From a candidate division CPR2 bacterium GW2011_GWC2_39_10 (GTDB taxonomy: Bacteria; Patescibacteriota; CPR2), in assembly GCA_000993275.1 (NCBI GenBank), contig LBVV01000009.1, forward strand, positions 2,897 through 66,896: a stretch of 64,000 nucleotides of DNA, given 5' to 3'. The translations under genes were made by a program, and so were the position numbers. Positions 1,442-51,738 of this stretch are shown in pieces (the stretch's first letter is position 1; each line of letters opens with the position of its first letter). A model generated the notes under the pieces. The model saw only the letters and a list, made by a program, of their open reading frames with translations, was not told where the DNA came from and did no database searches.

Positions 1442-1471
1442 TAAACAATAAGCAAGAAACAATAAACAAAA

Positions 1472-1497
1472 AAGCCTCGAAAGGGGCTTTTTTGTTT
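1472..1497 (+). terminator. Rho-independent terminator after fusA
   Basis: Stem AGCCTC, loop GAAA, stem GGGGCT, followed by a T-run. Confidence 0.7.
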
Positions 1498-1545
1498 CTT
1501 TCGTCATTGCGAAGGAGCGAAGCGACTGCGGCAATCTCATGGGAA
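1497..1545. repeat. Partial copy of the 97-bp repeat family A
   Basis: Shares GTCATTGCGAA and TGCGGCAATCT segments with the full copies at 1722 and 6205. Confidence 0.5.
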
Positions 1546-1721
1546 CACGATTAATGTCTCAGCCAAAGGTTGATCCGCCCTGGAGCGAGACAGGTCTTGG
1601 GCGGAAAATGCCAAATTACAAATAAGAAATATCAAAAAAGTATTAAGAATTGGAATATAGAATTTAGAATATGGTTTTTCTGCTTTATGCCATATTCTTT
1701 ATTCTCGCAAGTATTTGTCAT

Positions 1722-1818
1722 GTAACTGCTCACAATCGTCATTGCGAACGATCCGGCAGCCGCCGGAGAGTGCGGCAATCTTGTTTCAAGCAGAGGAGAT
1801 TGCTTCGTTTCACTCGCA
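1722..1818. repeat. Repeat family A, full copy 1 (97 bp)
   Basis: Near-identical (one mismatch) to 6205-6302. Begins with the TGTAACTGCTCACAATC motif and contains the internal hairpin GCAATCT..AGATTGC. Confidence 0.85.
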
Positions 1819-2132
1819 TTTGTCATTTTCAGCGCTTTTTTGTTCAAAATTCCAAAAAATTGTCTTCATGGGAAGTATTTAAACTATCTAATCTAACCTA
1901 CATTGATCTATTAAAGTTTATTATTATGAAAATGTAATTTTTGAAGCTATAAATTTAGTACCTTAACAGTGCTTGATCATTGTGGTCTAAAACCTGCAGG
2001 TTTAGCGGGGCCAAGCTTTAGGAACTCGAGAAGAGTTCCTAAAGACAGCTCATTACATAAAAAAAGGGGGGCAAAAGAAGTCACTACAAAAGGAGCCATA
2101 GCTGGCTTCTTTTGTTATTTCTAACAAAATAC

Positions 2133-2161
2133 TTGCAAAAAAAGAAAAAAGTAGGTATAAT
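2133..2161 (+). promoter_or_regulatory. Sigma70-like promoter upstream of tuf
   Basis: TTGCAA, 17-nt spacer, TATAAT; about 95 nt upstream of the tuf start. Confidence 0.55.
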
Positions 2162-2256
2162 TTTTAAAGTTAGTGGAAGAGTAAAGTCGTCCACGATTTA
2201 ATTTGTAGACCAACACTAAACTTAAACAAAACCTATAAAAAGAAAGAAAGGAAAAT

Positions 2257-3438
2257 ATGGCAGAAAAATTTCAAAGAAATAAAACCCATGTCAATGTTGG
2301 TACAATTGGTCACGTTGACCATGGAAAAACCACACTTACTGCTGCTATTACCCACGTACTTGCTAAAAAGGGTCTAGCTAAAGCAGAGAAATACGAAGAT
2401 ATCGATAATGCCCCCGAAGAAAAAGAAAGAGGCATTACTATCGCAACTCATCACTCTGAATATGAATCAGAGAAAAGACATTATGCTCACGTGGATTGTC
2501 CGGGTCATGCCGACTATGTTAAAAACATGATTACCGGTGCAGCCCAAATGGACGGTGCTATTTTAGTTGTATCTGCGGCTGACGGGCCAATGCCTCAGAC
2601 CAGAGAGCATATTCTTTTAGCTCACCAAGTTGGTGTTCCACATATGGTTGTTTACATGAACAAAACCGATATGGTTGACGATCCAGAATTAATTGACTTG
2701 GTAGAAATGGAAATTAGAGAGCTTCTATCCAAATACGAATTTCCCGGTGATGACACCCCAATTATTAAAGGATCAGCCCTAAAGGCACTAGAGGGCGATA
2801 AAGACGCCGAACAGTCAATTCTGGACTTAATAGATGCCGTAGACTCTTTTATACCGGATCCAAAACGAGAAATCGACAAACCTTTCTTAATGGCAGTTGA
2901 AGATGTTTTCTCAATTAAAGGACGAGGTACAGTTGCTACCGGAAGAATTGAAAGGGGCAAAGTTAAGGTTAATGAAGAAGTTGAAATAGTAGGTATTCAC
3001 CCAACCAGAAAAACAGTTGTAACCGGCGTTGAAATGTTTAGAAAACTTTTAGACGAAGGTTTCGCCGGCGATAACGTTGGACTACTACTTCGAGGCGTTG
3101 AAAAAGACGACATCGAAAGAGGCCAGGTTGTTATCAAGCCGGGCTCTATTACTCCTCATACAGAATTTGACAGTGAAATATATATTCTAACCAAGGATGA
3201 AGGCGGACGACATACCCCTTTCTTCAAGGGTTACAAACCTCAGTTTTATATTAGAACAACTGACGTTACCGGTGAAGTTACTTTACCTTCAGGTGTAGAA
3301 ATGGTTATGCCTGGCGATACGGTTAAATTAGGAATTAAGTTAATTGCTCCAATTGCAATGGAAGATGGAATGAGATTTGCAATCCGCGAAGGTGGTCGAA
3401 CCGTAGGCGCCGGAGTAGTAACTAAGATCATAAAATAA
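2257..3438 (+). CDS. tuf: Elongation factor Tu
   Basis: [17 protein letters not shown] and NKTD GTPase motifs; full length, 393 aa. Confidence 0.97.
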
Positions 3439-3463: not shown

Positions 3464-3799
3464 TTGACAGCACAAGCAAAAACCCCAGAAAAGACGAAGC
3501 AAAGGATAAGAATCAGGCTAAAAGCTTATGACCATAAGATTATTGATGAGTCATGTAAGCAAATTATTGAAACTGCGGCAAGAACAGGCGCTTTGGTTGC
3601 CGGACCGGTACCGCTTCCAACTCAACGGAATGTGATTACGGTTATCAGATCTCCGCATATCGATAAAAATTCCCGGGAACAGTTCGAGATGAAAACCCAT
3701 AAAAGGCTGATTGACATCCTTGATCCCGCTCCAAAAACAATAGATTCCCTAATGAATCTAAACTTACCGGCCGGTGTAGATATCGAAATTAAGATGTAG
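3464..3799 (+). CDS. rpsJ: 30S ribosomal protein S10
   Basis: [15 protein letters not shown]...PVPLPT; TTG start after an AAGGAG RBS. Confidence 0.93.
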
Positions 3800-3823
3800 A
3801 TAAATTAAGATGTAGATAACAAA

Positions 3824-3853
3824 AAAGAGTCAGGCAGTTGCCAGACTCTTTTT
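3824..3853 (+). terminator. Rho-independent terminator after rpsJ
   Basis: AGAGTC..11-nt loop..GACTCT followed by TTTTTT. Confidence 0.6.
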
Positions 3854-3995
3854 TAATGTCAAATGTCAAATTACAAAATATTTAGTTATTGGCATTAATT
3901 AATATCATTTGGTGGTTATTTTTTTTGTTTTAATCAAACGATTGCGATTTTGCTTTTTGCTTTATATACTTATGATATAAATAAAAGAGGGTGAA

Positions 3996-6068
3996 ATGTT
4001 TTCTAAAATAAAATCCGGTTTTAAGTCGCATAAAAAATTAGTTGTTATTCTATTTTCGTCTTTTTTAATTTTAGGGCTATCGGGCGGAATTTATTATTTT
4101 GACTATTTTAGAGATTCCATAAGTCCGAACATAATATCTAAAAAAAAACCTACTCCTACTCCAAAACTTGAACCATTAAAAGTATCGGATAACAATCTTA
4201 AAAAGTTTTCTTCCTGCAGCACCTTAACTAGCGTTTTTGAAAACAGAAAAAAAGAGCAGCAAAACAGACTTATGGAATTTGCTGCAACGGCACCCGCAGA
4301 TCCTCCGGGCAAGGGCGGCGGAGGCGGCGAATATTCTGAAACCAATGTTCAGGTTGAGGGTGTAGATGAGGGAGATATCGTTAAAACTGATGGTGATTAT
4401 ATTTACACTATTGTTAAAGAGAAGGCCATTAAAATTGTTAAGGCCTTGCCTGCTAACAATATTTCGCTGTCTTCAACTATTAATTTCCCCGACAATTATG
4501 CCGTAAAAGAGTTATTTTTAGATGGAAATAAGTTGGTTGCTCTTGGAAATTCAGCAATCAAAGCCCGGGGCATTACAAATGTGCCGGAATGGTATTCGGA
4601 TTATAATTTTAATGAGGTTTACACTTTTATTAAAATTTGGGATATTACTGATCGGAATAATCCTAATCTGGTTCGTGACCTGCAGTATCAGGGTAATTAT
4701 TCGACTTCCAGAAAAATTAGCAGCTCGGTTTATGTGGTTGTAAATACTGCTCCGGATTTTGAAATTATTAATAAAGACGCTAAGGCTGACCAATATATTC
4801 CCAAAATATCCACGTCTGTTGGATCTTCTCAGTATAAGCCGGCTTGCGAATGTCAGGACGTGCATTATCTCACTTCCTTAAATTCAAAAAAGGAAACCAC
4901 CGAGGCAGAAGATATTAGGAATTTAAAAGATAGCAATTTTGTTTCGGTGATTACTATTAAGGCTCAAGATGTAAGCGCAGATCCGGACAAAAAAGTGATT
5001 GTTGCAAGTACCGATAAGGCTTATGCCTCAGCTAAAAATCTTTATTTAGCAGAGCCGCAATATCCGGAATTAACGACAAATGGGACAGTTTCGAATTTAA
5101 TTCCGGATAGCAATAATACGGCTATTCATAAATTTGCCCTTTCGGCAGAAAGAACCGATTATTTATCAAGCACTATAGTTCCGGGCGAAGTCTTAAACAA
5201 ATACTCGATGGACGAATATAACGATCATCTTAGAATTGCAACCACCAAGGGCAATGTGTGGAACCAAACCACAAAATCAACAAACAATTTGTATGTTTTA
5301 GATAAAAACTTTAAATTAGTGGGCAAAATAGAAGGCTTGGCCGAAGGGGAACATATCTATTCGGCAAGATTTGTGGGAGAAAGAGGCTATCTGGTTACAT
5401 TTAAAAAAGTAGATCCTTTTTTCACCCTGGACCTTAAAGATCCGGCCAGTCCCAAAGTGGTCGGTCAATTAAAGATTCCGGGTTATAGCGATTATCTACA
5501 TCCGATAGACGAAAACCATATTATAGGCATCGGAAAAAACACCATTGAAGCACAGCAGGAGTTAGAAAGCGAGCGAAGGGTTGATTTTGCCTGGTATCAA
5601 GGAATAAAAATGGCAATATTTGATGTGACCGATTTTGCAAATCCAAAGGAAATGCATAAGGTTACCATAGGCGATAGGGGAACGGATTCTTACGCCTTAC
5701 ATGACCCCAAAGCTTTTCTTTACGATAAAAAGAAAAATTTATTAGTCATTCCAATTTTGCTTGCCGAAATGTCCGAGACTCAGAAAAAGCAAGCGGAAGA
5801 TTGGGAATACGGCGCCAATACTTATCAGGGATCTTATGTTTATAATGTAACCCTAGATGCGGGTTTCGAACTTAGGGGCAGGGTCACTCATTATTCGGAA
5901 AATCATTTTAAGGATATCGAAAATAACATGTCATATTATTATTACGGCGACGATAAATCTATAGCCAGATCTTTATATATTGGTGATAATCTTTATACCG
6001 TCTCCAATGGTAAAATTATGGTTAATAATCTATCCAATTTATCCAAACTAAAAGAACTAAGTCTATAG
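3996..6068 (+). CDS. Secreted beta-propeller domain protein (Pfam Beta_propel / COG4880-like) with an N-terminal signal anchor
   Basis: N-terminal TM, Gly-rich linker, then the characteristic GVDEGDIVKTDGDYIYT start and repeated YS.RFVGERGYLVTF / GYSDYLHP blades. Confidence 0.7.
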   Translation: MFSKIKSGFKSHKKLVVILFSSFLILGLSGGIYYFDYFRDSISPNIISKKKPTPTPKLEPLKVSDNNLKKFSSCSTLTSVFENRKKEQQNRLMEFAATAPADPPGKGGGGGEYSETNVQVEGVDEGDIVKTDGDYIYTIVKEKAIKIVKALPANNISLSSTINFPDNYAVKELFLDGNKLVALGNSAIKARGITNVPEWYSDYNFNEVYTFIKIWDITDRNNPNLVRDLQYQGNYSTSRKISSSVYVVVNTAPDFEIINKDAKADQYIPKISTSVGSSQYKPACECQDVHYLTSLNSKKETTEAEDIRNLKDSNFVSVITIKAQDVSADPDKKVIVASTDKAYASAKNLYLAEPQYPELTTNGTVSNLIPDSNNTAIHKFALSAERTDYLSSTIVPGEVLNKYSMDEYNDHLRIATTKGNVWNQTTKSTNNLYVLDKNFKLVGKIEGLAEGEHIYSARFVGERGYLVTFKKVDPFFTLDLKDPASPKVVGQLKIPGYSDYLHPIDENHIIGIGKNTIEAQQELESERRVDFAWYQGIKMAIFDVTDFANPKEMHKVTIGDRGTDSYALHDPKAFLYDKKKNLLVIPILLAEMSETQKKQAEDWEYGANTYQGSYVYNVTLDAGFELRGRVTHYSENHFKDIENNMSYYYYGDDKSIARSLYIGDNLYTVSNGKIMVNNLSNLSKLKELSL

Positions 6069-6204
6069 TAAAAAAACCGCCCCATCATGGGATAGTCTCT
6101 CTCATTTGAGTCTCAATTGGATTACTAAAATCTCCATCTAAATGACTTAAGGCTGGCAGGAAATCGGAAAGACAACTAAAAAAATGAGTGTAACCCAGGC
6201 CCTT

Positions 6205-6302
6205 TGTAACTGCTCATAATCGTCATTGCGAACGATCCGGCAGCCGCCGGAGAGTGCGGCAATCTTGTTTCAAGCAGAGGAGATTGCTTCGTTTCACTCG
6301 CA
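6205..6302. repeat. Repeat family A, full copy 2
   Basis: 98 bp, near-identical to 1722-1818. Confidence 0.85.
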
Positions 6303-6400
6303 AAAAACTGCTTAAAATGTGCTAAAATTTAAAATCAAACAAAAATGCAACTTTACAATTAAATGAAAAATGTCAGCACTGATTTAGGAGGGGAATTAAA

Positions 6401-6766
6401 ATGAAAAGGTTGAATGATTTTAGTATCTATGCGAAATTGATTATTTTCGGAATAATGATTGAAATTTTAAGTTTATTTCTGCCGATGGTTTTTATTAAAT
6501 TATTGCCCTACGTATTGCCCAACATAGTAACTGTGTCGGAAATCCCATTTCCAGTTTTAATGATTCTCAATCTTCGGCCAACATTAGGCCATTATGGATT
6601 TATTTGCATCATGGCTGGATTAGATTATTACTTTTGGCGCAATAATAGCCCTGATGAAGAAAATGGACATTTATATCTATCAAGGCTAGTCATTAAGCAT
6701 TCCCCCGCATTGTTAATGGTTATTTACTCGATAGACTATTTCATTTTTACACGTTTTATTAATTGA
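6401..6766 (+). CDS. Small hypothetical membrane protein
   Basis: GGAGGGG RBS 7 nt upstream; hydrophobic 121-aa product; no recognisable family. Confidence 0.45.
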   Translation: MKRLNDFSIYAKLIIFGIMIEILSLFLPMVFIKLLPYVLPNIVTVSEIPFPVLMILNLRPTLGHYGFICIMAGLDYYFWRNNSPDEENGHLYLSRLVIKHSPALLMVIYSIDYFIFTRFIN

Positions 6767-6819
6767 TGAATGTCGGCACATTTCGCACTGGCAAGATAAC
6801 TGTTTTGAGGAGGTCTATT

Positions 6820-7341
6820 ATGAAAACTACAAGCAGTGGAATTATCGTTGCGCGGCATGTAATCGAGACGATTAAATTGGCACCGATTAGGATAGATCAT
6901 GATCTTGAGTTTGCGAGAATAATAGAGGGCTTATACGGCCACGATTCTGGCATCAACTACACCAATATCCCTGATTGCAACGCAGGAAAAAATGGCATCG
7001 AGGAGGCAAGCCTTTTTCTTGTCAGGCCCGTTCCTTATTGGCAGGTGTGGTTAACAGACAGGGTTTTGTCATTGCTTGATGAAGCAGGATTTGTCCAAGA
7101 AGAGTTTCCTACCCTGTTTTCGCTCATGGGTCATGCCGAAGAACTTTGCAAAGCACGTATTGATAACATCTCGGCTCTTGGTGAGCACTCTCGTTGGAGG
7201 CATTCCAACGGCAATATCTTTGCTCCGTTTATGTCGCTATACGCTGCTAAATTCGGTTATCCTGCATTTTGCGAATTCGAAAGTAAATTTATCGGGAGCA
7301 AATGGTCGGAAGATAATTGGCTTGTTGTCCGCCACAAGTAG
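6820..7341 (+). CDS. Hypothetical protein of ~173 aa with a locally higher GC composition
   Basis: GAGGAGG RBS before the ATG at 6820. The ORF tool's longer 6763 start is less likely. No recognisable family. Confidence 0.5.
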   Translation: MKTTSSGIIVARHVIETIKLAPIRIDHDLEFARIIEGLYGHDSGINYTNIPDCNAGKNGIEEASLFLVRPVPYWQVWLTDRVLSLLDEAGFVQEEFPTLFSLMGHAEELCKARIDNISALGEHSRWRHSNGNIFAPFMSLYAAKFGYPAFCEFESKFIGSKWSEDNWLVVRHK

Positions 7342-7496
7342 TTTTTAAGACATAGGAATTTGAATTATTAATTCTTTAATTCCTTCGGTCCCAAACGGGC
7401 GATTTTGACTTTAAGTTGAGATCGCCTTTTTTTATTGTTGTTTTTAACCCATAAACCCATTGACCAATTAACCCATCCCACCCGCTAATTTTCTTC

Positions 7497-7525
7497 TTGA
7501 CAAATTGAGCTTAAAACCTTATACT
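7497..7525 (+). promoter_or_regulatory. Sigma70-like promoter that restarts the S10 operon at rplC
   Basis: TTGACA, 17-nt spacer, TATACT; followed by a ~115-nt hairpin-rich leader. Confidence 0.55.
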
Positions 7526-7642
7526 TTTTAAGGTAATATTTTATAAAGAAATACTTACAGTATCAAGCGGGGAGTTGGAGCAGTCCGGCGAATGTCGGAA
7601 ACTTTCTAACTGTCCGAAATATTTGTTTGTCTAGGAAACAAA

Positions 7643-8269
7643 ATGAAAGCAGTTTTAGGTAAAAAAGTTGGAATGACCAGAATTTTCGCCGAAAACGGTA
7701 AAATTACACCCGTTACGGTTATTGAAGTTACTCCAAATACTGTCATCCAAATTAAAACCGCAGGCAAAGACGGATACAATGCAGTTCAAATTGGTTTCGG
7801 TAACGTAAAAAATATAAAAAAGCCTCAGGCCGGTCACTTAAAAAAGGCAAAAGTTGAAGCAAAATATTTAAAAGAAGTCCCCTCAATTGACATAGAAACT
7901 GCCGAAGGGCAGGAGCCTAAGGAGCTAAAAGTAGGGGATCAAATTTTAGTTGACATCTTTAACTCCGGCGATAAGGTTGAAGCTGTCGGTGTTTCCAAGG
8001 GCAAGGGCTTTGCCGGCACCATTAAAAGACACAACTTTAGTAGAGGCCCAAAATCGCACGGCTCTCATAATGTCAGAAAACCCGGTTCTATCGGAGCCAT
8101 GTTTCCGCAGCACGTTTTCAAGGGTCAGAAAATGCCTGGAAGAATGGGACATATTCAGGTTACCACCAAAAATTTAGAAATAGTTACAGTAGATAAAGAG
8201 AATAATTTATTAACAATTAAAGGCGCTGTGCCCGGACCGGCAAAAGGGCTAATAGTAATTAGAGGTTAA
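7643..8269 (+). CDS. rplC: 50S ribosomal protein L3
   Basis: MKAVLGKKVGMTRIF... L3 signature. Confidence 0.95.
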   Translation: MKAVLGKKVGMTRIFAENGKITPVTVIEVTPNTVIQIKTAGKDGYNAVQIGFGNVKNIKKPQAGHLKKAKVEAKYLKEVPSIDIETAEGQEPKELKVGDQILVDIFNSGDKVEAVGVSKGKGFAGTIKRHNFSRGPKSHGSHNVRKPGSIGAMFPQHVFKGQKMPGRMGHIQVTTKNLEIVTVDKENNLLTIKGAVPGPAKGLIVIRG

Positions 8270-12725: not shown

Positions 12726-13031
12726 ATGAAAGTTAAAAAAGGCGACAATATACTCGTTACCGTTGGTAAGGATAAGGGCAAAACCGGCAAAGTTATGCAA
12801 GTTTTACCTTCAGACGCTGCAGTTATAGTTGAAGGTATCAATATTAAGAAAAAGGCTGTTAAAGCTTCGACAAAGATACCGGCCGGTGGCATTATTGAGG
12901 TTACAAAGTCGATTGATTCATCTAATTTAGCAGTTGTTTGTCCGAGATGTAATAAGCCGGCCAGAATGGGTTATACCGAAATAAAAGGCGGTAAGGTCAG
13001 AATTTGCAAGAGATGCAAGGAGAAAATCTAA
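12726..13031 (+). CDS. rplX: 50S ribosomal protein L24 (KOW domain) with a C-terminal C4 zinc-ribbon insert
   Basis: KKGDNILVTVGKDKGKTGKV KOW motif, then CPRCN...CKRCK. Confidence 0.9.
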   Translation: MKVKKGDNILVTVGKDKGKTGKVMQVLPSDAAVIVEGINIKKKAVKASTKIPAGGIIEVTKSIDSSNLAVVCPRCNKPARMGYTEIKGGKVRICKRCKEKI

Positions 13032-22190: not shown

Positions 22191-22240
22191 TGTCAATCCG
22201 GACATTCCTTTAGAAAATACAATCAAGTGATCCGGAATCC
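22191..22240. repeat. ~50-nt palindromic element (CCGGACATTC...TGATCCGGAATCC). A second copy sits at 25215-25263.
   Basis: The two copies align almost base for base. Confidence 0.7.
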
Positions 22241-22282
22241 AGAAAGAAAAAAATATCAATCCTGTCCTTTTCTGAAGCAAAA

Positions 22283-22452
22283 AGTAACTGCTCACAATCC
22301 TGCATTTTATGTTCATATATTATATTAAACTATTTATGTCATACCAAACTTGATTTGGGATCCACTTGTTCAGTTAAATATCGAGCTTTCTGGATTCCGG
22401 ATCAAGTCCGGAATGACAAGAAAGGGGGGGGTGATTGTGAGCAGTTACAGCA
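22283..22452. mobile_element. MITE-like element (~170 bp) with perfect 16-bp terminal inverted repeats GTAACTGCTCACAATC. No transposase is present.
   Basis: The left TIR is at 22285-22300 and its reverse complement at 22435-22450. The interior carries an ATTCCGGA-TCAAG-TCCGGAAT hairpin. Confidence 0.6.
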
Positions 22453-25214: not shown

Positions 25215-25263
25215 GTCATTCCGGACATTCATTTAAAAAGTACAATCATTTGATCCGGAATCC
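25215..25263. repeat. Second copy of the ~50-nt CCGGACATTC...GATCCGGAATCC palindromic element
   Basis: Aligns with 22191-22240. Confidence 0.7.
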
Positions 25264-25282
25264 ATTCTTTTTTAAAGTACTT

Positions 25283-25415
25283 TCTTTTCCACTTTTGGCA
25301 GCAAAAGTGGAGCAAAACTGCCGACACGCTACAAAATCGGATTAGCACATAAGGCTCATTCACTCTCAAAAAGTCGAACTCGTCGTGCATCTCGATTTTT
25401 CCGCTACAGTCGGAC
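25283..25415. repeat. Repeat family B, copy 1 (133 bp)
   Basis: Near-identical to 31446-31594 apart from a 17-bp indel. Starts with the hairpin CCACTTTTGGCAGCAAAAGTGG. Confidence 0.85.
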
Positions 25416-25484
25416 AAAAGAAGGGAAATTTGATTTAAAGGCAAAAATTATTTTTTTAATCAATTCTTTGCTATAATAACATTA

Positions 25485-31367: not shown

Positions 31368-31404
31368 ATAATTGTGCATCTAATTTCAGAATGGGTTTAA
31401 GTAT

Positions 31405-31429
31405 GTCATTCCGGACTTGATCCGGAATC
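31405..31429. repeat. GTCATTCC-family hairpin (ATTCCGGA-CTTGA-TCCGGAAT) after ricT; may act as a terminator
   Basis: Seen in the sequence and followed by a T-rich tract. Confidence 0.55.
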
Positions 31430-31445
31430 TATTATTTCTTTATTT

Positions 31446-31594
31446 CTATTTCCACTTTTGGCAGCAAAAGTGGAGCAAAACTGCCGACACGCTACAAAAT
31501 CGGATTAGCACATAAGGCTCATTCACTCTCAAAAAGTCGAACTCGTCATCTTCTCTTCGCCAAGTGCATCTCGATTTTTCCGCTACAGTCGGAG
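31446..31594. repeat. Repeat family B, copy 2
   Basis: Aligns with 25283-25415. Confidence 0.85.
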
Positions 31595-31643
31595 AAGAAT
31601 TATAGATATTGATATCGCAAATAGTATGGACTATTATTAATTT

Positions 31644-37262: not shown

Positions 37263-38201
37263 ATGAGAAAAAAGGTTTTCAAGCTTGTGGTTGGGATTTT
37301 TGCATTAGCGGCAATACTGGCAATGCCCAAACACATTTATGCGGAGGGTGATACGGGGGGAGCGCGTGGAATAACCATAGTCCCTTTAAATTTCGAGTTG
37401 TTTGCTAATCCGGGAGAAAGTATTACCGACAAGGTTAGAGTTACCAACACATCCGATGTCGAAGGTAGTTATCAAATTCTAATCCAAGATTTTGCGGCTA
37501 CGGGCGAAGAAGGCAATGTATCTTTATTTGAGGATGATCAAACTAACCACAGCTTTTCTTTGGCTAAGTGGATTCAGCCGGAGCCCAAAAATTTTACCCT
37601 GAAAGCAAAAGAAGAGAAAACCATATATTTTACTATAAATGTACCCAAAGATGCTGAACCGGGCGGCCACTATGCATCTGTTTTGGTTAATATGGGCGGT
37701 GATGTAAAGCCAAGCGGCGGTGCGTCAGTTGCTTCCAGAATTGGATCTCTCATTCTTCTAAGAGTTTCCGGCAATATCAGAGAAGAAGCTAATATAGAGT
37801 CCTTTACCGCACCGAGTTATTCCGAAAAGAGTCCAATCGAATTTGATTTAAGAGTAAAAAATACCGGCAATAATCACATCAGACCAAAAGGCACCATTGT
37901 TATCACAAATATTTTAGGCCAAAAAGTTACCGAAGTTCCCTTGGACGGTTTAAATGTTTTGCCGAATGCTATTAGAAAAATACCAACCACTTGGAAACCG
38001 AATCAAATGTTGGCAGGACGTTACACGGCAACTCTGGTAGCTAACTATGGTTCATCAAACAAGCAATTAACATCGACAGTATCATTTATAGTTTTTCCTA
38101 AATGGCTTGCATTAGTTGTTGGTACAGGTATTATTTTGCTTGCTGTTGTTATATCAAACAAGAAAGCAGTTAAAAAATTACTGCATAAGTTAACTAAATA
38201 A
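37263..38201 (+). CDS. Cell-surface protein, DUF916/DUF3324-like architecture (signal peptide, Ig-like core, C-terminal TM with a basic tail). Paralog of 56191-57129.
   Basis: It aligns with 56191-57129 along the whole length (e.g. FELF.NPGE...V.NTS.VEGS, AEPGG.YAS..VNMGG, AGRYTATLVA.YG). Confidence 0.55.
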   Translation: MRKKVFKLVVGIFALAAILAMPKHIYAEGDTGGARGITIVPLNFELFANPGESITDKVRVTNTSDVEGSYQILIQDFAATGEEGNVSLFEDDQTNHSFSLAKWIQPEPKNFTLKAKEEKTIYFTINVPKDAEPGGHYASVLVNMGGDVKPSGGASVASRIGSLILLRVSGNIREEANIESFTAPSYSEKSPIEFDLRVKNTGNNHIRPKGTIVITNILGQKVTEVPLDGLNVLPNAIRKIPTTWKPNQMLAGRYTATLVANYGSSNKQLTSTVSFIVFPKWLALVVGTGIILLAVVISNKKAVKKLLHKLTK

Positions 38202-38262
38202 TAACTTACTTGAGCTTTTGTTAACAAAGCTCTTAGGGGGTGGCAAGAGTTTGGGTTTGGGT

Positions 38263-39498
38263 ATGAGAAAACTTACAAAGAATATAATAGTTGGTGTCAC
38301 CCTGTTTATTGCCTTCTTTGTCTTTTCGGCTGACAAGGCAAGCGCTGCGGTTCAGGGGCTAAATTTCCCAAGAGATACAATTAACACGGGTAATCCCGAA
38401 GCATACGCCCAGCATTTAATTAAATTCGGACTGCCTTTAGAATCTCTACAGGTAAGTGCCGGCGACTATATTTTAATAGATTTTCCATTTTATTCATCGC
38501 TGACCGAGCCAACTTTTTTGAGTGGTTCTTTTACGGGGAATCCGGTTTTTAGCGTGATTGATAAGAGAATTAGAATTACCGGCATAGAACTGTTGCCGGG
38601 TAAAACGTTGCAAATTAATGGTATTAATGCCTATAATCCGGCCAATAGGGACGAATATGACGTTTATATTCGTATTTCTTCTGATCCGGACGGAATAGTT
38701 ACTAGAAATATGGCCCAGATCATAGCCACGCCGACCGATAATTCGGTCTCAGTTTCAGCCACAATAATGGCCAATGTTGGAACTCTAAAAGTAACAGGCT
38801 ATGCCGCTCCGGGACTTTTTTTGACATTTTCGGAAAACGGTACCATTATCGGCACCACTACCGGCACGCCCACCGGAACATTTTCTCAAATCTTTCCCGG
38901 CATTAATCCGGTTCAGCACACCATTATTATATTTGGTACGGATTCCGTAAATAGAACCACATCTCCCGTGACGATAGAGGCATTCACCAGGGTTAGGGAA
39001 TTGACCATAGTATCCGGCGTATTAATGCCGCCAACCATGTCTATTGATAAAGATCAAATTACTCAAGGGGAGTCCTTAACTATCTCAGGGATGGGCGTAC
39101 CTGGTCACATGATTATTATTTATACTCAACCGGCTCCCGATGAAAGCTATCAGACTGCGCCGGAATTGGATGGGGCTTGGTCTCATACTATTACCGATAC
39201 ATCCAGTTTCGAGATTGGCGTTCATTCGGTTTGGGCGATTGATCAAGATATTTTTGGAGGGCAAAGCTTGTATAGCCGTACTTTGGATTTTAGAGTGACG
39301 CAGGCCTTGCCACCAAACCCCGGTCCTCCTTGCGATATAGAAAAAGGCGATTTATCCTGTGACTTGCTTGTTAATATCGTAGATTTTTCGATTCTTTTAT
39401 ATTATTGGGGCACCAATAACGGTGTTGCCGATATCAATGCTGATGGCAGCGTCAATCTCATCGATTTCTCTGTCATGATGTTCTATTGGCAAGGATAA
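38263..39498 (+). CDS. Secreted protein with a C-terminal dockerin-like module
   Basis: Signal peptide ending ASA-AVQG. The C-terminus has two calcium-binding-loop repeats: GDLSCDLLVNIVDFSILLYYW and DINADGSVNLIDFSVMMFYW (D1 N3 D5 G6 N9 D12 pattern). The ATG at 38263 is preferred over the tool's 38218. Confidence 0.6.
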   Translation: MRKLTKNIIVGVTLFIAFFVFSADKASAAVQGLNFPRDTINTGNPEAYAQHLIKFGLPLESLQVSAGDYILIDFPFYSSLTEPTFLSGSFTGNPVFSVIDKRIRITGIELLPGKTLQINGINAYNPANRDEYDVYIRISSDPDGIVTRNMAQIIATPTDNSVSVSATIMANVGTLKVTGYAAPGLFLTFSENGTIIGTTTGTPTGTFSQIFPGINPVQHTIIIFGTDSVNRTTSPVTIEAFTRVRELTIVSGVLMPPTMSIDKDQITQGESLTISGMGVPGHMIIIYTQPAPDESYQTAPELDGAWSHTITDTSSFEIGVHSVWAIDQDIFGGQSLYSRTLDFRVTQALPPNPGPPCDIEKGDLSCDLLVNIVDFSILLYYWGTNNGVADINADGSVNLIDFSVMMFYWQG

Positions 39499-39693
39499 AG
39501 ACCGCTAACGCGGAATATCAAATTAAAAATGTCAAATGTCTAATGAAATTCTAATGATTAAATTCCGAAAATTAAGATTTAAGATTTTGACATTCATTTG
39601 TAATTGACATTTGACATTAAGATCTTCATATCTTCCAAATTTCACAAATTCGTTATGTCATTCCAAACTCGACTACAGAATCTAGGAAGAATG

Positions 39694-39771
39694 GATTCCT
39701 GGTCAAGCCTGCCTCGCTTTGCTCATCAAGGCGGGCCAGGAATGACAAGTTGGGATTGTGAGCAGTTACAG
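39694..39771. repeat. Composite repeat end: a GTCATTCC-family hairpin (..CCAGGAATGACAAG) followed by the reverse-complement GATTGTGAGCAGTTACAG motif. The architecture matches 22394-22452.
   Basis: The GAATGACAAG, short spacer, GATTGTGAGCAGTTACAG order is shared with the MITE's right end. Confidence 0.6.
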
Positions 39772-40796
39772 TTATGTCTCTTGACTAAAATCGTTTGCTT
39801 GTGATCTTTAAGTTTGTTAAAATTGATGCTAGAGAGCGCAAAGGATGAAAAAACATTTTATTCACACAAAAAAAGCATTTGCGGTTATTTTAACTATATT
39901 CTTATTTTTATCCCTATTTTTCTTTGATGTTTCTAAAGTGACAGCGGCAGATCCGCCTTATTTTGTGTATCTTACTAATTTTAGCGTAGATGCAAAAATC
40001 GTCGGGCAGCCTTTTAATCTACAGATTCAAGCCTGGGATCCTAATAATATGGGCAACAATCCTATTCAGACAATGAATGGAACAATTTCGCTTCAAAACT
40101 CCACTTCTTCTATTTCTCCAAGCCAGGTTACTATGTCGGGGGGGGAGTGGATAGGACAGGTAACTATTACCAAATCTACGACAAGTGAAGTTATAACGGC
40201 CATGGCTACCGGTTTTGTGTCTTCATCTTCGCCGCAGTTTACTGTTTTGCCTGATAGTAGACAGGTAATACTGGGTGTTTATGGAGGGAATGTCCAATCT
40301 AAAACAGTAACGAACAGACTGGATAACTCTTTGCAAGTTAGAGCTATGGATAAATATGGTAATGCTATATCAAATGCCGGTATTTTATTTAAAAGCGTTG
40401 GTTTTCCGCCGGGTGCTAGCGGATATTCATTATCCTCCGGCAGCGTTTTGACGGATATAAATGGCATTGCTTCGACCCAATTTACTTTGGGCAACAAAAT
40501 AGGTACGTATATGGTTCAGGCCACTATTATTTCTGGCCTTTCGCCGCCGGTTACTTTTTATTCGAATGCAACAGCAGATGTCTTAAACAATCTTTTTATC
40601 TCACCAATTATTGCGGTTATACCCAAGGGAGCCCAACAGGTTTTTCAAACTACCGGAACCGATCGGCATGGCAATCCTGTTTCTGTTTCCGGAGTTGCGT
40701 GGTCGGTAGAAAGAGGCGGCGGTACCATTGATCAAAACGGTGTCCTGATCGAGGTCTTTTATCGCGATCTGCCGGGAAGCGACAAGGAGTTCCTCC

Positions 40797-41758
<962 letters not shown>

Positions 41759-41767
41759 GAGGGTATT

Positions 41768-42304
41768 TTGGCTGATTGGTTAATAAATATATTTATCACA
41801 TCCGTGTGTTTATTCACTTTGGGCTTATATTTTACTTACAGGGAAAGAGAACTGGAAGCAATTGCCAAAAGTAAGCTTGATGAAACTAAAGAAAAATACT
41901 TGGATCAAATTGCCAAAAGAAAAGCCAGGGAAAGAGAAGAAATAAGTAAATTACAAGCTATTGTTGCAGAAATTGAAAAGAAACATCAGGAAGTGGAAGT
42001 GGCGAGGCAAAATATTGGGCAAGGATCCGAGAGGGGTGCCGGTCAAAATGTATCCAATGTATCCACGGAAGAAGCTGAAAAAATTCTTGAAAGCGCAAGG
42101 GAAAGAGCAGCGGAAATTGAAGAAGAGGCGAAGAAAAAAGCTGACGAGTTTTTAGACAAACAAAAGAAGGAAGTTCAAACGAAAATGGTTGATTTGGTAA
42201 TGGGCGTAGTCAAAAAAGTTATTGGCCAGTTAGTAAGCTATGAGGATCACAAGAAAATAATTAAATCGGCGTTGGATGATATGGAGGGGGAGGGCAAGCG
42301 TTAG
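41768..42304 (+). CDS. atpF: F0 ATP synthase subunit b
   Basis: Single N-terminal TM and a long charged helix; operon position. Confidence 0.75.
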   Translation: MADWLINIFITSVCLFTLGLYFTYRERELEAIAKSKLDETKEKYLDQIAKRKAREREEISKLQAIVAEIEKKHQEVEVARQNIGQGSERGAGQNVSNVSTEEAEKILESARERAAEIEEEAKKKADEFLDKQKKEVQTKMVDLVMGVVKKVIGQLVSYEDHKKIIKSALDDMEGEGKR

Positions 42305-42843
42305 TGAAAACCATAAAGGATCATATAGATACAATCCTAGGTTCCATACATTCCAAGAAGGATTTGGATGAGGCGGTTTTTTGTGTGTGTTCTTTCGCCG
42401 AGCTTGTAGATTATAAGTCGGTTGGCGGCGACCAAAGCCAGAAAAGAAAACTCTTAATTGCCTCGGAAGTTAAAAATATCCAATCTGTTATTATCGGGGA
42501 TTATTTTACTAAACTTGTGAAGGCAAACCAAATGTGGCTTTTCGAGCCGTCACATTTTGCCGATTTTAATACGGCACTAAGTAGCATGGCATCTGAAACG
42601 TCAGCTATCGACTTAAAAGTAGCCATCGATTTAAAAGAAAGTGATATCCGGGAAATTGCCGATTATTTTTCCGCGAAGCAGCAGCATAAAGTCATCTTAA
42701 ATATTTCAGTTGATAAGTCGCTAATTGGCGGCGCCATAATAAAAAAGGATAATTACATAATGGACTTTTCCTTAAAAAATAAGCTTTCTACCTTAAGCGC
42801 TCAATGGAAAAAGTCTATTAAATTAAGTAAAGCCGATGAGTAA
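42304..42843 (+). CDS. atpH: F1 ATP synthase subunit delta (OSCP)
   Basis: Lies between atpF and atpA; OSCP-like C-terminus. Confidence 0.65.
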   Translation: MKTIKDHIDTILGSIHSKKDLDEAVFCVCSFAELVDYKSVGGDQSQKRKLLIASEVKNIQSVIIGDYFTKLVKANQMWLFEPSHFADFNTALSSMASETSAIDLKVAIDLKESDIREIADYFSAKQQHKVILNISVDKSLIGGAIIKKDNYIMDFSLKNKLSTLSAQWKKSIKLSKADE

Positions 42844-44590
42844 AAGCATAGTCGATTTTTTAAATGAAATTGATGAAAAACCAAAAGATAAGGCAGCGCC
42901 TAAAAAGAAAAAAAAGACGGTTGCTGCATTTAAGCCTTCTTTAAATTCCCCAAAAACTGTTAAAAATATTTCTAAAGTTTTGGAAGAATCAATGCCGGTA
43001 AACGAGTTGTCGCCGGATATAGTTGAGGTGGGCGAGGTTGTTTATATCGGTGATGGTGTCTGCAAGATTGAAGGCTTATCTAACGCTCGAATTGACGACG
43101 TTTTAAAAATTGAAACAGAAAAAGGTGAGGTTTTAACGTTGGTTCTGGGTATGTCGGACAGTCTGGTAGAAACAGTTGTTTTGGGAGACTATTTTGGCAT
43201 CAAAAAGGGGCAAAATGTTATTTCAACCAGAAAGACTTTAAAAATTTCCAGTGGCGAAGATATTTTAGGAAGAGTAATTTCTCCAATCGGAAAACCCTTG
43301 GACGGCAGGGGCCCGATTAAAGGGGGGAAAATGATGCAGGTTGAACGTCCTGCGCCGCCCGTTTATATGCGCTCTCCGATAGTGGATCAATTAAAGACTG
43401 GTTTTCTGGTGGTTGACTCTATTATTCCTGTCGGTCTTGGGCAGAGGGAGTTGGTAATAGGCGATAGAAAGACCGGCAAAACAAGATTTATGGCTGACGT
43501 AATATGCAACTTAAAGGGAGCCGGCATCTATTGCGTATATGTTGCTATTGGTGCTCAAAAAGCAAAAGTCAAGGGATTCACCGAATATTTGGATAGGTTT
43601 GGTGCTTTAGAATATACGGCAATTGTTATGAGTAGCTCGGATGATCCGCCATCTTTAAATTATTTGGCGCCGTATGCCGGATCTGCCTTGGCGGAATATT
43701 TTTTAGATCAGGGAAAGAATGCTTTAGTGATATATGACGATTTATCAAAACACGCCAAAGCTTATCGCCAGATGGCACTTCTTTTAAAAAGATCTCCGGG
43801 GCGAGATGCCTATCCCGGCGACATTTTCTTTTTGCATTCAAGGCTTTTAGAACGAAGCGCCAAGCTTTCTGGACAGTATGGCGGGGGTTCCATTACAGCC
43901 CTTCCGATGGCGGAAACGCAAAACGGTGATATTTCCGAATACATCACTACCAACTTGATGTCTATTACCGACGGCCACATCTACTTGGACAGTCTTATGA
44001 TGCACGATGGTATTCTGCCGGCAGTTAATTCCGGAGCATCGGTTTCTCGTATTGGCGGCAGCATTCAGCCGCCTATGCTTAGAAAACTGGCTGAGCTTGC
44101 AGCGGGTCAGTTAGCCAGGTATAACGAGGTAAAATCCTATGAAATAATGAATACGGAAATATCCATAGAAACAGAAAGAGAAATTGCTAAAGGCAAAAGA
44201 ATCTTAGAGATTTTCACGCAAAAATCAGGTATTAATTATTTGCAAGATGAAGAAGTTTTGCTCCTATATTTAGTGACTACCGGCCTCTTGGACTTTATCG
44301 ATTTGTCGGTCGTAACTAACATTAAAAGTGAAATAATTGAATTTTATCGGAACAATAGAGATAACTTTTCCGATTTTGCTAAAGGCGCTTTAAGCGTTAT
44401 GAAAAGTGTTGATGAAATAAAACCGTTTGCCGATCACCTTATTGAGGGATTTTATGCTAAATCCGAATCCGAAAGTGCTAAAACTTTAAAAAATGCCTAT
44501 TTGAAAGATGTAGAGGATAAAGAGACAAAGGAAAAAGAAAAGGCAAGTAAGGAAGCGGAAAATAAAGCTAAAGAAGGCGATAAAACGTAA
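42836..44590 (+). CDS. atpA: F1 ATP synthase subunit alpha, with N- and C-terminal Lys/Glu-rich extensions
   Basis: GDRKTGKT Walker A and conserved alpha-subunit blocks. Confidence 0.92.
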   Translation: MSKSIVDFLNEIDEKPKDKAAPKKKKKTVAAFKPSLNSPKTVKNISKVLEESMPVNELSPDIVEVGEVVYIGDGVCKIEGLSNARIDDVLKIETEKGEVLTLVLGMSDSLVETVVLGDYFGIKKGQNVISTRKTLKISSGEDILGRVISPIGKPLDGRGPIKGGKMMQVERPAPPVYMRSPIVDQLKTGFLVVDSIIPVGLGQRELVIGDRKTGKTRFMADVICNLKGAGIYCVYVAIGAQKAKVKGFTEYLDRFGALEYTAIVMSSSDDPPSLNYLAPYAGSALAEYFLDQGKNALVIYDDLSKHAKAYRQMALLLKRSPGRDAYPGDIFFLHSRLLERSAKLSGQYGGGSITALPMAETQNGDISEYITTNLMSITDGHIYLDSLMMHDGILPAVNSGASVSRIGGSIQPPMLRKLAELAAGQLARYNEVKSYEIMNTEISIETEREIAKGKRILEIFTQKSGINYLQDEEVLLLYLVTTGLLDFIDLSVVTNIKSEIIEFYRNNRDNFSDFAKGALSVMKSVDEIKPFADHLIEGFYAKSESESAKTLKNAYLKDVEDKETKEKEKASKEAENKAKEGDKT

Positions 44591-44615
44591 GGAAAAAGAA
44601 AGGGTAAAATAAAAA

Positions 44616-45494
44616 ATGCCGACGCTAAATGAGGTTAAAGAACAAATTGCGGTTGTAGGATCTGTGGGTGATTTTGCCAATGCGCTCCAACAAATTGCGG
44701 CAATGCGGATGGTAGCCCTGCGAAACCAGGTCTTAAACAGCAAGAGGTTTGTAGATGAGGCAACCGAAATTTTAAAAGAACTTAAATATTATCGTGAACT
44801 TTTATTTTTGGAAGAATACGAAAGAACCTCAAAAAAAGCATTTGGCAAGAACGAGAAAAAAGAGGAAAAGCCCATTAAAGATGCAGTAATGGTGGTGTCT
44901 TCAAACCAGGGTTTATGCGGTAGGTTCAACGCCGAAATATTTAAAAAAATGGAAAACTATATTTTTCCTAGAAATCCGGATGCCGATTATTATCTTTTAG
45001 GCAAAAAATGTCAGGAGCATTATTTGTCGTCTAAAAGGTTTAAGTTAAAGTTTTTCCCATATAACGTACCCGATAATTTTACAGCAAAAGATTTGATAAG
45101 GCTAACGGGTGTCTTTTCTCACTACAATAAAATTATTTTAATTTATACGAGGTATATAAACACTGTTAACAGTCAAGTAGTCGAAACTTTATTAGTTACA
45201 CCGCCAACCCCCATAGAGAAACAAAAAAAGGGTGACAAGGTTCAATATTTATTTGAACCTTCAATCGAAGATTTAATTATTGATGCTTCCGCTAAGTTGA
45301 GGGCGGCGGCATTTCAGCAGCAGATATTGGATTCAAGGCTGGCCCAATATTCAGCGCAAATGGTGGGTATGCAAGGAGCCTCAGAAAACGCCAAAGTAAT
45401 GCTTGATGATCTCGGGCACGAATATAATAAGCAAAGAAGAAAAATGATTGATAAAAAAATTGGGGAAGTTTTTGCCGGAAGCGCTTTATGGTAG
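44616..45494 (+). CDS. atpG: F1 ATP synthase subunit gamma
   Basis: Operon position and gamma-like N/C helices. Confidence 0.8.
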   Translation: MPTLNEVKEQIAVVGSVGDFANALQQIAAMRMVALRNQVLNSKRFVDEATEILKELKYYRELLFLEEYERTSKKAFGKNEKKEEKPIKDAVMVVSSNQGLCGRFNAEIFKKMENYIFPRNPDADYYLLGKKCQEHYLSSKRFKLKFFPYNVPDNFTAKDLIRLTGVFSHYNKIILIYTRYINTVNSQVVETLLVTPPTPIEKQKKGDKVQYLFEPSIEDLIIDASAKLRAAAFQQQILDSRLAQYSAQMVGMQGASENAKVMLDDLGHEYNKQRRKMIDKKIGEVFAGSALW

Positions 45495-45512
45495 AGATAG
45501 GCTAAAAGTTAA

Positions 45513-46905
<1,393 letters not shown>

Positions 46906-46921
<16 letters not shown>

Positions 46922-47262
46922 AAGAGATTAAACCCCAAGAGGAAGCTGAAAAACAGAACAAAGATACTCCGGAATTTGTGGCTAAGGAAAAACAGGACTT
47001 GGCCGCAAAAGAATTTCCGGAAACTTTTAATTTGGTAATTGTTGATATGGACAGGGTAACCTTCGAGGGGCCGGCAAAATCCCTCATTGCTCCCGGATCG
47101 AATGGAAATTTTGCCATTTTGCCCGGGCATACGCCTTTATTTGCTAAAATCGATTCGGGCAAGCTTTTCATCGAACATAAATTTGGCACTGAGGAATTAC
47201 AGATAAAGGGCGGTATTGCTAAAATTAATCAATTTCAGGTAACAATATTGGTGGATTTTTAA
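46906..47262 (+). CDS. atpC: F1 ATP synthase subunit epsilon. It has the N-terminal beta-sandwich only, plus an acidic N-terminal extension.
   Basis: ILPGHTPLF motif; operon position. Confidence 0.7.
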
Positions 47263-47310
47263 TAAGTCCAGTAAAATATAAACATATTTTATAGGTACCT
47301 AAAAATTATG

Positions 47311-47339
47311 TTGACATGTTTTTAAGCATTATTTATTAT
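47311..47339 (+). promoter_or_regulatory. Sigma70-like promoter (TTGACA, 17 nt, TATTAT) upstream of the WxL-like gene
   Basis: Seen in the sequence. Confidence 0.45.
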
Positions 47340-47536
47340 AGATATAACTTGTTTAAGCAAAGGCAAGTTTTATAAGCAGTTAGTTTATTAATAACCAAAT
47401 AAAAAATAGCAAAGAGTTGGCAAAGGAGGTGAATATAGGAGCATAAACTTCTATTACGTGCGTGTAAATTTGAAAAAACCATCAATTAACAGGGGGAATG
47501 AAAACAAATATTATTTAAAATTTAAAAGGAGAGAAG

Positions 47537-48685: not shown

Positions 48686-48707
48686 CAAAACCTAGTTAAG
48701 TTTAAAA

Positions 48708-48736
48708 AAGAAGACCCGCAAGGGTCTTCTTTTGAT
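48708..48736 (+). terminator. Rho-independent terminator (AGAAGACCC-GCAA-GGGTCTTCT then T-run)
   Basis: Seen in the sequence. Confidence 0.8.
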
Positions 48737-49076
48737 TCCGAGGAAAAACTAGAATTAAGAATAACGAATTATGAATTAATTATGCGAATGAAGAATAAGG
48801 GATAAGCAGGACTTACGTACATCAATATTGTTCGACCTTGCCTGCCTGCCCGAAGCAAAGCGGAGGAGGATGGAGAACTACATTAATGCAACTTCAGTGT
48901 CTGGCAGCTGCCGGATCCTGAAGAGTAAAATAAGCAGTTCTGCGTAAGTCCCATAAAGCAAAAAGTTCTATCTTCTAATATTCTATATTCCCATACTTAA
49001 TACCTTATACTAGATTCTTTATTCTTCCCCCTTCTCTTATTGCTTTTCTGTCTAAAATTAGGTTACAATTAGATCA

Positions 49077-51515: not shown

Positions 51516-51715
51516 TCTTTCTACTTTTTGGCAGCAAAAAGATAGCAAAAACTGCCGACAAAGCTACAAAATTGGGTTAGGACTGAGTCTTGTTCACTCT
51601 CAAAAAGTCGAACTCGTCGTAACCTCCTCAAACACAACTTTTTGAGATGTTCCCTGCGACATCCGACCTCAGCTTCGCCGAAGGCGAGACGGGAGTCCAC
51701 CACAATTTTTACGCT
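51516..51715. repeat. Repeat family B, copy 3. It carries a ~70-bp insertion flanked by CTCAAAAA / TTTTTGAGAT.
   Basis: Aligns with copies 1 and 2 at both ends (CTACTTTTTGGCAGCAAAAAG..CTGCCGAC..CTCTCAAAAAGTCGAACTCGTCG ... CGCTACAGTCGGA). Confidence 0.7.
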
Positions 51716-51738
51716 ACAGTCGGAAAAAATGAAATATT

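Follow-up and report, generated by a model that had tools for sequence, protein, structure and literature searches.

In cyanobacteria, plastids and archaea, the gene for ribosomal protein S10 travels with those for S12, S7, EF-G and EF-Tu, apart from the L3 cluster. Flexible genomic islets, which are replacement hotspots between core genes, have fixed conserved flanks and unrelated cargo in close relatives. In Escherichia coli, the S10 operon has a leader that mediates L4-dependent attenuation and translational repression (PMC3616713). In addition, the variable proteins of diversity-generating retroelements (DGRs) that are known to have a C-type-lectin fold include Mtd, TvpA and TaqVP, as well as targets of the DUF1566 and FGE-sulfatase types (PMC5006420, PMC6328139, PMC5758913). 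Here we compare these systems with the junction between rpsJ (S10) and rplC (L3) in a 64,000-nucleotide stretch of DNA (the window) from the candidate division CPR2 bacterium GW2011_GWC2_39_10, a member of the Patescibacteria (contig LBVV01000009.1, positions 2,897 to 66,896 of the forward strand). As in the organisms with a separated S10 gene, rpsJ of the window is the last gene of a fusA-tuf-rpsJ series and rplC heads its own operon. In CPR2, however, both units stay chromosomal neighbours, with lineage-specific accessory genes between them. We read this junction, with a probability of about three in four, as an old operon boundary that holds a variable slot between fixed landmarks, and not as a freshly broken operon. 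Genome features of this kind, variable slots at ancestral operon boundaries, are already known.

The comparison within CPR2 covers three distinct genomes. The window matches the population of the metagenome-assembled genomes (MAGs) GW2011_GWC1_39_9 and GWC2_39_10, and the nearest other genome is the MAG CG2_30_37_16 (locus L001), whose L3 and EF-Tu are 92% and 99% identical to those of the window. The third genome is CPR2 GW2011_GWC2_39_35 (L002), with 69% and 87% identity for the same proteins. The order fusA-tuf-rpsJ is present in all CPR2 loci, and a terminator stands directly 3' of rpsJ in all three genomes. The distance from rpsJ to rplC is 3843 bp in the window and is taken up there by three genes. 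In L001 it is 1047 bp, with one unrelated open reading frame (ORF) of 220 aa, and the 1932 bp of L002 contain two ORFs, one of 136 aa on the minus strand, apparently membrane-embedded as judged by eye, and one of 131 aa. The flanks of the window and L001 are 88-91% identical by blastn, and this homology breaks off at 3798, within the stop codon of rpsJ, and resumes at 7485, 12 nt 5' of the -35 box of rplC; in between, blastn matches only a 25-nt island at 3849-3873. With tblastn and a threshold of E 1e-5, we found no match to any of the three cargo proteins of the window in the 128 loci that we collected in total. No empty site is found among the three CPR2 genomes, and the relatives without the cargo of the window hold other genes. 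An earlier reading of the letters of the window (the original prediction) had proposed synteny as a check, and the outcome is divided: the split itself is conserved in the lineage, against the prediction, and the cargo is replaced by unrelated genes in the nearest relatives, in its favor.

The gap is also filled with different genes outside CPR2. As sister lineages we compared L004, L009 and L003. The gaps in L004 and L009 measure 3.6 and 5.4 kb and contain genes for TrpR-like, DoxX, NUDIX and class IV aminotransferase proteins and for a conserved protein of ~180 aa. L009 also encodes, at 5923-7422, an N6_N4_Mtase methylase fused to an Mrr-type nuclease domain, which is absent from its close relative L004, and this difference amounts to a clean single-gene indel in the same slot. 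In a wider S10 scan of metagenomes, 80 loci were retrieved, and both rpsJ and rplC were visible in 43 loci from outside CPR2. These 43 were chosen solely by an S10 similarity of 68-75% and are relatives in that sense only; their gaps are shorter than 300 bp in nine, 399 bp in one and 450-2842 bp in the remaining 33. They contain a family of ~90 aa with two transmembrane segments (16 loci), NUDIX (six) and M29 peptidase (three) genes, and many singletons. By comparison, in the Proteobacteria and Mycoplasma used as controls the two genes are 27 to about 340 bp apart, mostly 90-140 bp, which leaves no room for an intervening gene.

The right-hand landmark of the slot is the start of the rplC operon. 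The sequence TTGACA-17-TATACT at 7497-7525 (on the + strand, like the other genes and signals given here from tuf to rplC) agrees with the consensus at 11 of 12 positions, and no other stretch of the first 12 kb matches sigma-70 as well. The window, L001 and L002 have the same -35 and -10 boxes at the same spacing, and L004, L009 and L003 have TTGAC(A/T)-17-TATAAT at the same position. The original prediction had taken this promoter to be fresh: the promoter is indeed there, but it is not fresh, being conserved in all the relatives examined. Between the end of the -10 box (7525) and the ATG of rplC (7643) lies a leader hairpin at 7568-7616, which occupies the same position in six lineages and consists of a helix, an internal loop and an AGUCC-loop-GGAAACU core. 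The 5' untranslated region of rplC folds significantly better than its shuffles (minimum-free-energy structure, z -4.2). A covariance model built from the three CPR2 sequences, whose match in the window spans 7548-7633, finds its only other matches directly 5' of rplC in L009, L004 and L003 (E about 4e-6, 2e-5 and 4e-3, respectively). In the resulting alignment, which comprises six sequences only and is fitted to the model, 90.5% of the cells are paired, versus 24-52% with slid partners; compensatory double changes occur in 11 of 16 pairs, and the covariation score is reached by none of 500 shuffles. Helix 1 has wholly different sequences in CPR2 and in L004/L009.

This leader resembles that of the E. 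coli S10 operon in being a structured 5' leader before an operon encoding L3 and L4, and in placing a hairpin and then a U-rich tract near the start codon. In contrast, it precedes rplC and not rpsJ, has no sequence or structure similarity to the E. coli leader, and is found in CPR2 and two or three sister lineages only. A search of 7340-7700 against Rfam, which includes the gammaproteobacterial L4/S10 leader, gave nothing above 21 bits (E 0.75 or worse), and a second-iteration covariance model found no more copies in 68 other loci, so that the motif is narrow. The core AGUCC...GGAAACU has only fuzzy matches with at least two mismatches, at chance level, in E. coli 16S and 23S rRNA; the rRNA of the host lies outside the window. 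No ribosomal-protein leader for this group turned up in the literature, in which no search aimed at one was made. By analogy with the control of the E. coli S10 leader by L4, we infer that the hairpin regulates the rplC operon and could be an autoregulatory ribosomal-protein leader. The promoter and hairpin make a candidate ribosomal-protein leader with covariation support and no Rfam family, and this unannotated motif of CPR2 and sister lineages is a modestly new by-product of the analysis.

Because the terminator is kept in CPR2, and the promoter and leader in CPR2 and also in the sister lineages, the boundary that they form predates the cargo. We propose that the tuf-rpsJ unit would end in its intrinsic terminator, that the rplC operon would start from its own conserved sigma-70 promoter and structured leader, and that the DNA between them (about 3874-7439) would form a slot in which each relative holds different accessory genes. 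In the window, the slot would be occupied by one terminator-closed unit of three genes. Cargo would arrive and turn over by recombination within the spacer; this is suggested by a 16-nt duplication, a swapped terminator stem and an element resembling a miniature inverted-repeat transposable element (MITE) in the cargo. Taken together, the comparisons support the view that the three cargo genes are specific to this species-level population and probably foreign in part.

At the left junction, rpsJ (3464-3799; PF00338, E 3.5e-38) is the last gene of the upstream unit, which is of the str type and also includes fusA (ending at 1441, identified from the ORF list and protein-family scans) and tuf (2257-3438, a full-length ORF of 393 aa). 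The last 12 nt of rpsJ, stop codon included, are part of a tandem duplication of the 16-nt sequence ATTAAGATGTAGATAA, present as two exact adjacent copies at 3788-3819. By alignment, L001 and L002 are without it, and the duplication has the look of a footprint of local remodelling. The intrinsic terminator follows at 3821-3854 (hairpin and T-run, dG -22.8 kcal/mol, z -6.4). Its stem is unrelated to AAAAACCGCCC...GGGCGGTTTTT, the homologous stem that L001 and L002 have in common at the same site. Although the stem differs, the 25 nt at 3849-3873, past the T-run, are conserved (96% match to L001 2027-2051) and are the last homology to L001 before the cargo. This segment contains the 16-mer ATGTCAAATGTCAAAT at 3856-3871, which also lies 3' of the rpsJ terminator in L001 (2034-2049). 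The same 16-mer is found in the window at 39529-39544 (+) and 39602-39617 (-), an inverted pair near 39.5 kb; that makes three matches in the window with 0.09 expected, and the 16-mer may be a protein-binding site or a small repeat. Separately, a string 3' of the stop codon of the first cargo gene, AAAAACCGCCCC at 6071-6085, is similar to the left arm of the terminator that follows rpsJ in the relatives. This string has no terminator fold (z -0.7), and we dismissed the resemblance as a coincidence.

The original prediction had seen in this arrangement a mobile or horizontally acquired insertion that split the operon. In its explicit form, this explanation states that a recently transferred cassette broke an intact rpsJ-rplC operon and that the rplC promoter arose or came in to restore expression. 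It would account for the absence of the cargo from the closest relatives, for the gene of 173 aa with the highest GC content at third codon positions (GC3) in the window, for the MITE-like repeat inside the cargo and for the 16-nt duplication at the end of rpsJ. The insertion has against it that CPR2 and sister lineages, including L004, L009 and L003, keep the promoter and leader, with covariation, whatever lies upstream of them, that the other CPR2 genomes already have the rpsJ terminator and a gap of at least 1 kb, and that gaps of 450 bp or more are found in 33 of the 43 metagenomic relatives. Moreover, two of the three cargo genes are native in composition. The signs of mobility are also wanting. 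No integrase or transposase gene is found among the cargo ORFs of 3800-7642. When the borders at 3799-3995 and 7342-7500 were compared, the longest shared words were 9 nt (direct) and 8 nt (inverted); of 300 shuffles, 93 and 210, respectively, gave words at least as long, which is chance level. The 16-nt duplication is a tandem one, without a partner at the right border. In a phage collection searched with tblastn, the cargo proteins of 121 and 173 aa have no match, and the first cargo protein, a beta-propeller, has a single weak one at 28.5% identity. We hold a recent split of the operon to be distinctly improbable. What stands of the predicted mobility is the population-specific cargo and the deviant 173-aa gene; the hallmarks of a mobile element are absent.

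The slot that we favor shares with flexible genomic islets the fixed conserved flanks with unrelated cargo in close relatives, and also the small repeats and indels at its junctions. It differs in its address, which is the junction of two highly conserved, highly expressed operons, and in that no tRNA, integrase or att-like repeats are involved.

The first cargo gene (3996-6068) encodes a 690-aa beta-propeller that matches PF09826 along positions 1-494 of the 495 in the profile (522.7 bits with a cut-off of 22.4; E 1.4e-156). It has one N-terminal transmembrane segment, at residues 13-35, so the secreted beta-propeller of the original prediction gains a full-length family match, and its location is better described as probably membrane-anchored or secreted. 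This full-length match and N-terminal anchor are what the protein has in common with the secreted beta-propellers of PF09826 / COG4880, among which it counts as an ordinary if divergent member: its best non-self homologue is 48% identical, and no other comes closer. Most of the matches listed for it have no source name; among the few that are named, most are from DPANN archaea, and the others come from Woykebacteria, Actinobacteria and Geothermincolia. Upstream of the gene, a candidate promoter (TTGCGA-17-TATACT, 3942-3970) sits 26 nt 5' of the ATG and is a weak consensus match (9 of 12 positions). A consensus scan found no promoter-like site on the + strand between 5990 and 7497, and on this basis the three cargo genes would be read as one unit, co-transcribed from the candidate promoter to the intrinsic terminator at 7397-7427 (14-bp stem followed by a T7 run; fold z -5.0). 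The ORF list holds no further ORF of at least 50 aa with coding support in 3800-7642.

The second cargo gene (6401-6766) has an AGGAGG ribosome-binding site 8 nt upstream. Its 121-aa product is hydrophobic and, by hydropathy scan, a polytopic membrane protein, in agreement with the small membrane protein that had been predicted. It has no match in Pfam or NCBIfam and forms a singleton cluster at 90% identity, present on 16 contigs. We class it as an ORFan on the basis of Pfam/NCBIfam, the clustering, the phage collection and the 128 loci, no database-wide homology search having been made. Two sets of candidate relatives were considered and found unrelated: the small genes adjoining the beta-propeller homologue in L129, and the ~90-aa family found upstream of rplC in other lineages (E 3.2).

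The third cargo gene (6820-7341, with GAGGAGG upstream) encodes the 173-aa protein that had been predicted to be an orphan. It has indeed no match in Pfam or NCBIfam, with none in Pfam even at E 1, and a word-indexed homology search returned only the protein itself. An exhaustive phmmer search of 1.84 billion representatives, however, recovered 22 homologues of at most 45% identity, so that it belongs to a family, none of whose members has a Pfam match. Its members can be aligned from end to end, and they share a conserved core and, at the C-terminus, the motif WFVVRRK. The C-terminal ~100 residues of the window protein are modelled as a C-type-lectin-like fold, and the C-terminal domain of Legionella Lcl (8q4e) and an FGE paralogue were named in connection with it. 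It is a predicted soluble protein, with no signal peptide and no transmembrane segment.

Some homologues of this protein belong to DGRs. The closest that could be retrieved, P0144 in L043 (44% identity), adjoins bAvd (E 5e-19) and an RVT_1 reverse transcriptase (E 2.5e-16), and L043 has two tandem gene ends of the variable-repeat (VR) type. In L045, the last 131 nt of the gene for the homologue P0126 are repeated beside bAvd at 85% identity; of the 19 mismatches between the two copies, 18 fall at adenines of the second copy, which is the signature of a DGR template repeat (TR) paired with a VR. These genomic contexts place genuine DGR variable proteins within the family. A second subgroup comes from genomes of 65-68% GC and has no DGR nearby; its genes are always followed by one for a protein of ~300 aa with weak similarity to polysaccharide lyase 14 (PL14-like). 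The PL14-like genes lie at L036 6741-7652, L040 6517-7401, L046 8608-9501 and L047 3255-4151, and the copies in L036 and L040 are 81% identical despite their differing upstream neighbours, which suggests a two-gene module of the homologue and the PL14-like gene.

It could be argued from these homologues, as well as from the predicted fold, that the 173-aa gene is itself an active remote DGR target and the cassette a diversification locus. We find this very improbable. The 64-kb window contains no TR-like copy of the 3' part of the gene, no reverse transcriptase among its 20 ORFs of suitable size (Pfam scan), and no Avd or reverse transcriptase linked to the gene. In addition, 14 contigs from several samples encode exactly the same protein, and its cluster includes two known variants, which differ only at residues 76, 82 and 94, outside the VR-equivalent region (here, as in every result on variation between contigs, the contigs are consensus sequences). 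The VR-equivalent segment itself departs from the family consensus, with an insertion and the divergent C-terminal end NWLVVRHK. From the missing TR, Avd and reverse transcriptase in the window and the invariance across contigs, the gene is best read as a static descendant of a DGR variable-protein family, with no DGR nearby, and its product would most likely act as a binding protein of fixed specificity. Compared with Mtd, TvpA and TaqVP, the likeness lies in the C-type-lectin-like C-terminus and in the homologues with a 3'-terminal VR, TR, bAvd and reverse transcriptase; the window protein differs in being very small (~170 aa), in having no Pfam match and no DGR, and in being invariant. This unannotated family of mini C-type lectins, with DGR targets and DGR-free descendants, is modestly new and offers a compact case for what becomes of variable proteins after loss of the retroelement.

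The 173-aa gene is also the sole cargo gene of deviant composition. As predicted, it is more GC-rich than its neighbours: with GC 0.446 and GC3 0.466 (z about +2.9; window mean GC3 0.343, sd 0.042), it has the highest GC3 of the 70 ORFs of the window. Family genes are likewise far more GC-rich than their own low-GC host contigs (0.57 versus 0.43-0.47), and its GC excess could be a family trait or reflect incomplete adaptation to the composition of the host after transfer. The beta-propeller gene and the 121-aa ORF, with GC3 of 0.340 and 0.344, are genome-typical. The compositional deviation that had been expected across 3.8-7.6 kb is therefore confined to one gene of the three.

The native codon usage of these two genes, together with the ancient split between rpsJ and rplC, speaks for another possibility, namely that the CPR2 ancestor had a large multi-gene spacer of which the descendants keep different subsets, the cassette being a vertical relic. 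We consider such differential loss unlikely. No cargo gene is common to the three genomes despite the ~90% identity of the flanks of the window and L001, which would call for several independent losses of the whole cargo; the 173-aa gene stands out in its composition; and the methylase-Mrr gene that distinguishes L009 from L004 is a single-gene indel in the same slot.

Some points weigh against our own reading of an old boundary with a variable slot and partly foreign cargo. First, the native GC3 of the first two cargo genes is no positive sign of import as opposed to relocation or retention. Composition has little power here, since two close homologues of the beta-propeller are on contigs of 36-40% GC, and transfer between similar genomes is compatible with native GC3. 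Second, the DGR search covered the 64-kb window, and a DGR elsewhere in the genome is possible. Third, the three distinct CPR2 genomes put few constraints on how fast and in which direction the cargo changes, and the 43 metagenomic relatives were selected by S10 similarity alone, without taxonomy.

The one repeat within the rpsJ-rplC interval bears both on the remodelling of the slot and on the integrity of the assembly. Between the first and second cargo genes lies a 98-nt sequence (6205-6302) that recurs, with 99% identity, at 1721-1818 in the spacer between fusA and tuf. The original prediction, most of whose anatomy is borne out, was wrong in one detail, having placed a repeat copy after the 173-aa gene; nothing in 7342-7500 recurs elsewhere in the window, and the copy at 6205-6302 is the only one in the interval. 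Five other assemblies of the same population have 39 extra nucleotides at 6304/6305, which restore a terminal inverted repeat (GTAACTGCTCAYAA...), and the 98-nt repeat is on this evidence a truncated form of a MITE-like element of ~140 nt. It is not significantly structured as RNA (z -0.9). In L018, one of these five assemblies, the element lies at 12742-12878.

The presence of the repeat at both 1721-1818 and 6205-6302 raises the question of a chimeric join through it, which would make the arrangement an assembly artefact, and the NCBI assembly of GWC1_39_9 does break exactly there. The five contigs with the extra nucleotides (L018, L019, L027, L028 and L030), independent assemblies from different samples and assemblers, nevertheless cross the repeat and span the whole interval in the same order, and from this we conclude that the gene arrangement from rpsJ to rplC is real. 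Moreover, even without that join, rpsJ would still directly precede the beta-propeller gene and the 173-aa gene would still directly precede rplC. An artefact is thus extremely improbable. The 121-aa and 173-aa proteins are also identical to entries of the two MAGs of this population, GW2011_GWC1_39_9 and GWC2_39_10.

We also considered a broader version of our reading, in which the rpsJ-rplC junction would be a lineage-wide dedicated landing pad in CPR2 and neighbouring Patescibacteria. This pad would be terminator-insulated, its undescribed rplC leader might be a counterpart of the gammaproteobacterial L4/S10 attenuator, and its settlers would include domesticated, non-diversifying descendants of DGR variable proteins. 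We regard this version as tentative, possible rather than probable. The narrower reading has practical consequences of its own. Phylogenies of the candidate phyla radiation (CPR) use the block of 16 ribosomal proteins as the standard marker set, and this block is usually taken to be one syntenic operon; the separation of S10 from L3 in CPR2 and in many S10-similar relatives bears on binning and on assumptions about marker contigs. Moreover, the slot provides a fixed address for comparing the turnover of accessory genes among very reduced genomes. None of these findings overturns current understanding.

Other observations concern the same region in further lineages. The ~90-aa family with two transmembrane segments has the motif HDHFxIDRKIEYA and no Pfam match, and it lies directly 5' of rplC in 16 of the 43 relatives (L055, L061, L064, L068, L074, L075, L085, L105, L107, L111, L112, L116, L119, L121, L122 and L125). 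In three loci no rpsJ is found upstream of rplC, within 4.9 kb in L010 (a Zoogloeaceae MAG), 4.1 kb in L003 and 1.8 kb in L013, which indicates that rpsJ stands apart from rplC in further lineages, one of them labelled a proteobacterium.

The spacer between fusA and tuf is variable as well. In the window (1442-2256) it measures 815 bp and contains the MITE-like repeat; in L002 (4493-6527) it is ~2 kb long and includes a minus-strand ORF of 231 aa without a Pfam match, and in L004 (4708-4903) it is 197 bp. An Rfam search of this spacer at a permissive E-value gave chance-level matches only. A short contig from the population of the window, L026, has tuf divided into two called ORFs, of 205 and 134 aa (264-1330), which suggests a frameshift or an assembly error.

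Downstream of rplC (7643-8269; PF00297) come rplD and then the remaining operon. Further along the window, a direct repeat of ~130 nt (99 nt at 100% and 33 nt at 97%), with copies at 25286-25417 and 31449-31596, encloses 6.2 kb of housekeeping genes (YbbR, TrkA, pseudouridine synthase, HolB-like and PSP1). It has no Rfam match, and a third copy, which has diverged (62-82%), follows after another 20 kb, at 51520-51727. A short repeat family, GTCATTCCGGAC...GATCCGGAATC, is found near the same block in direct and inverted orientation (22192-22241, 25215-25264, 22393-22418 and 31404-31429). Finally, predicted surface proteins are encoded one after another at 37263-51273 (WxL-interacting PGBD, dockerin, Big_1 and fn3, along with several that lack a Pfam match), with a GC content above average that reaches 0.47 at 47537-48685.

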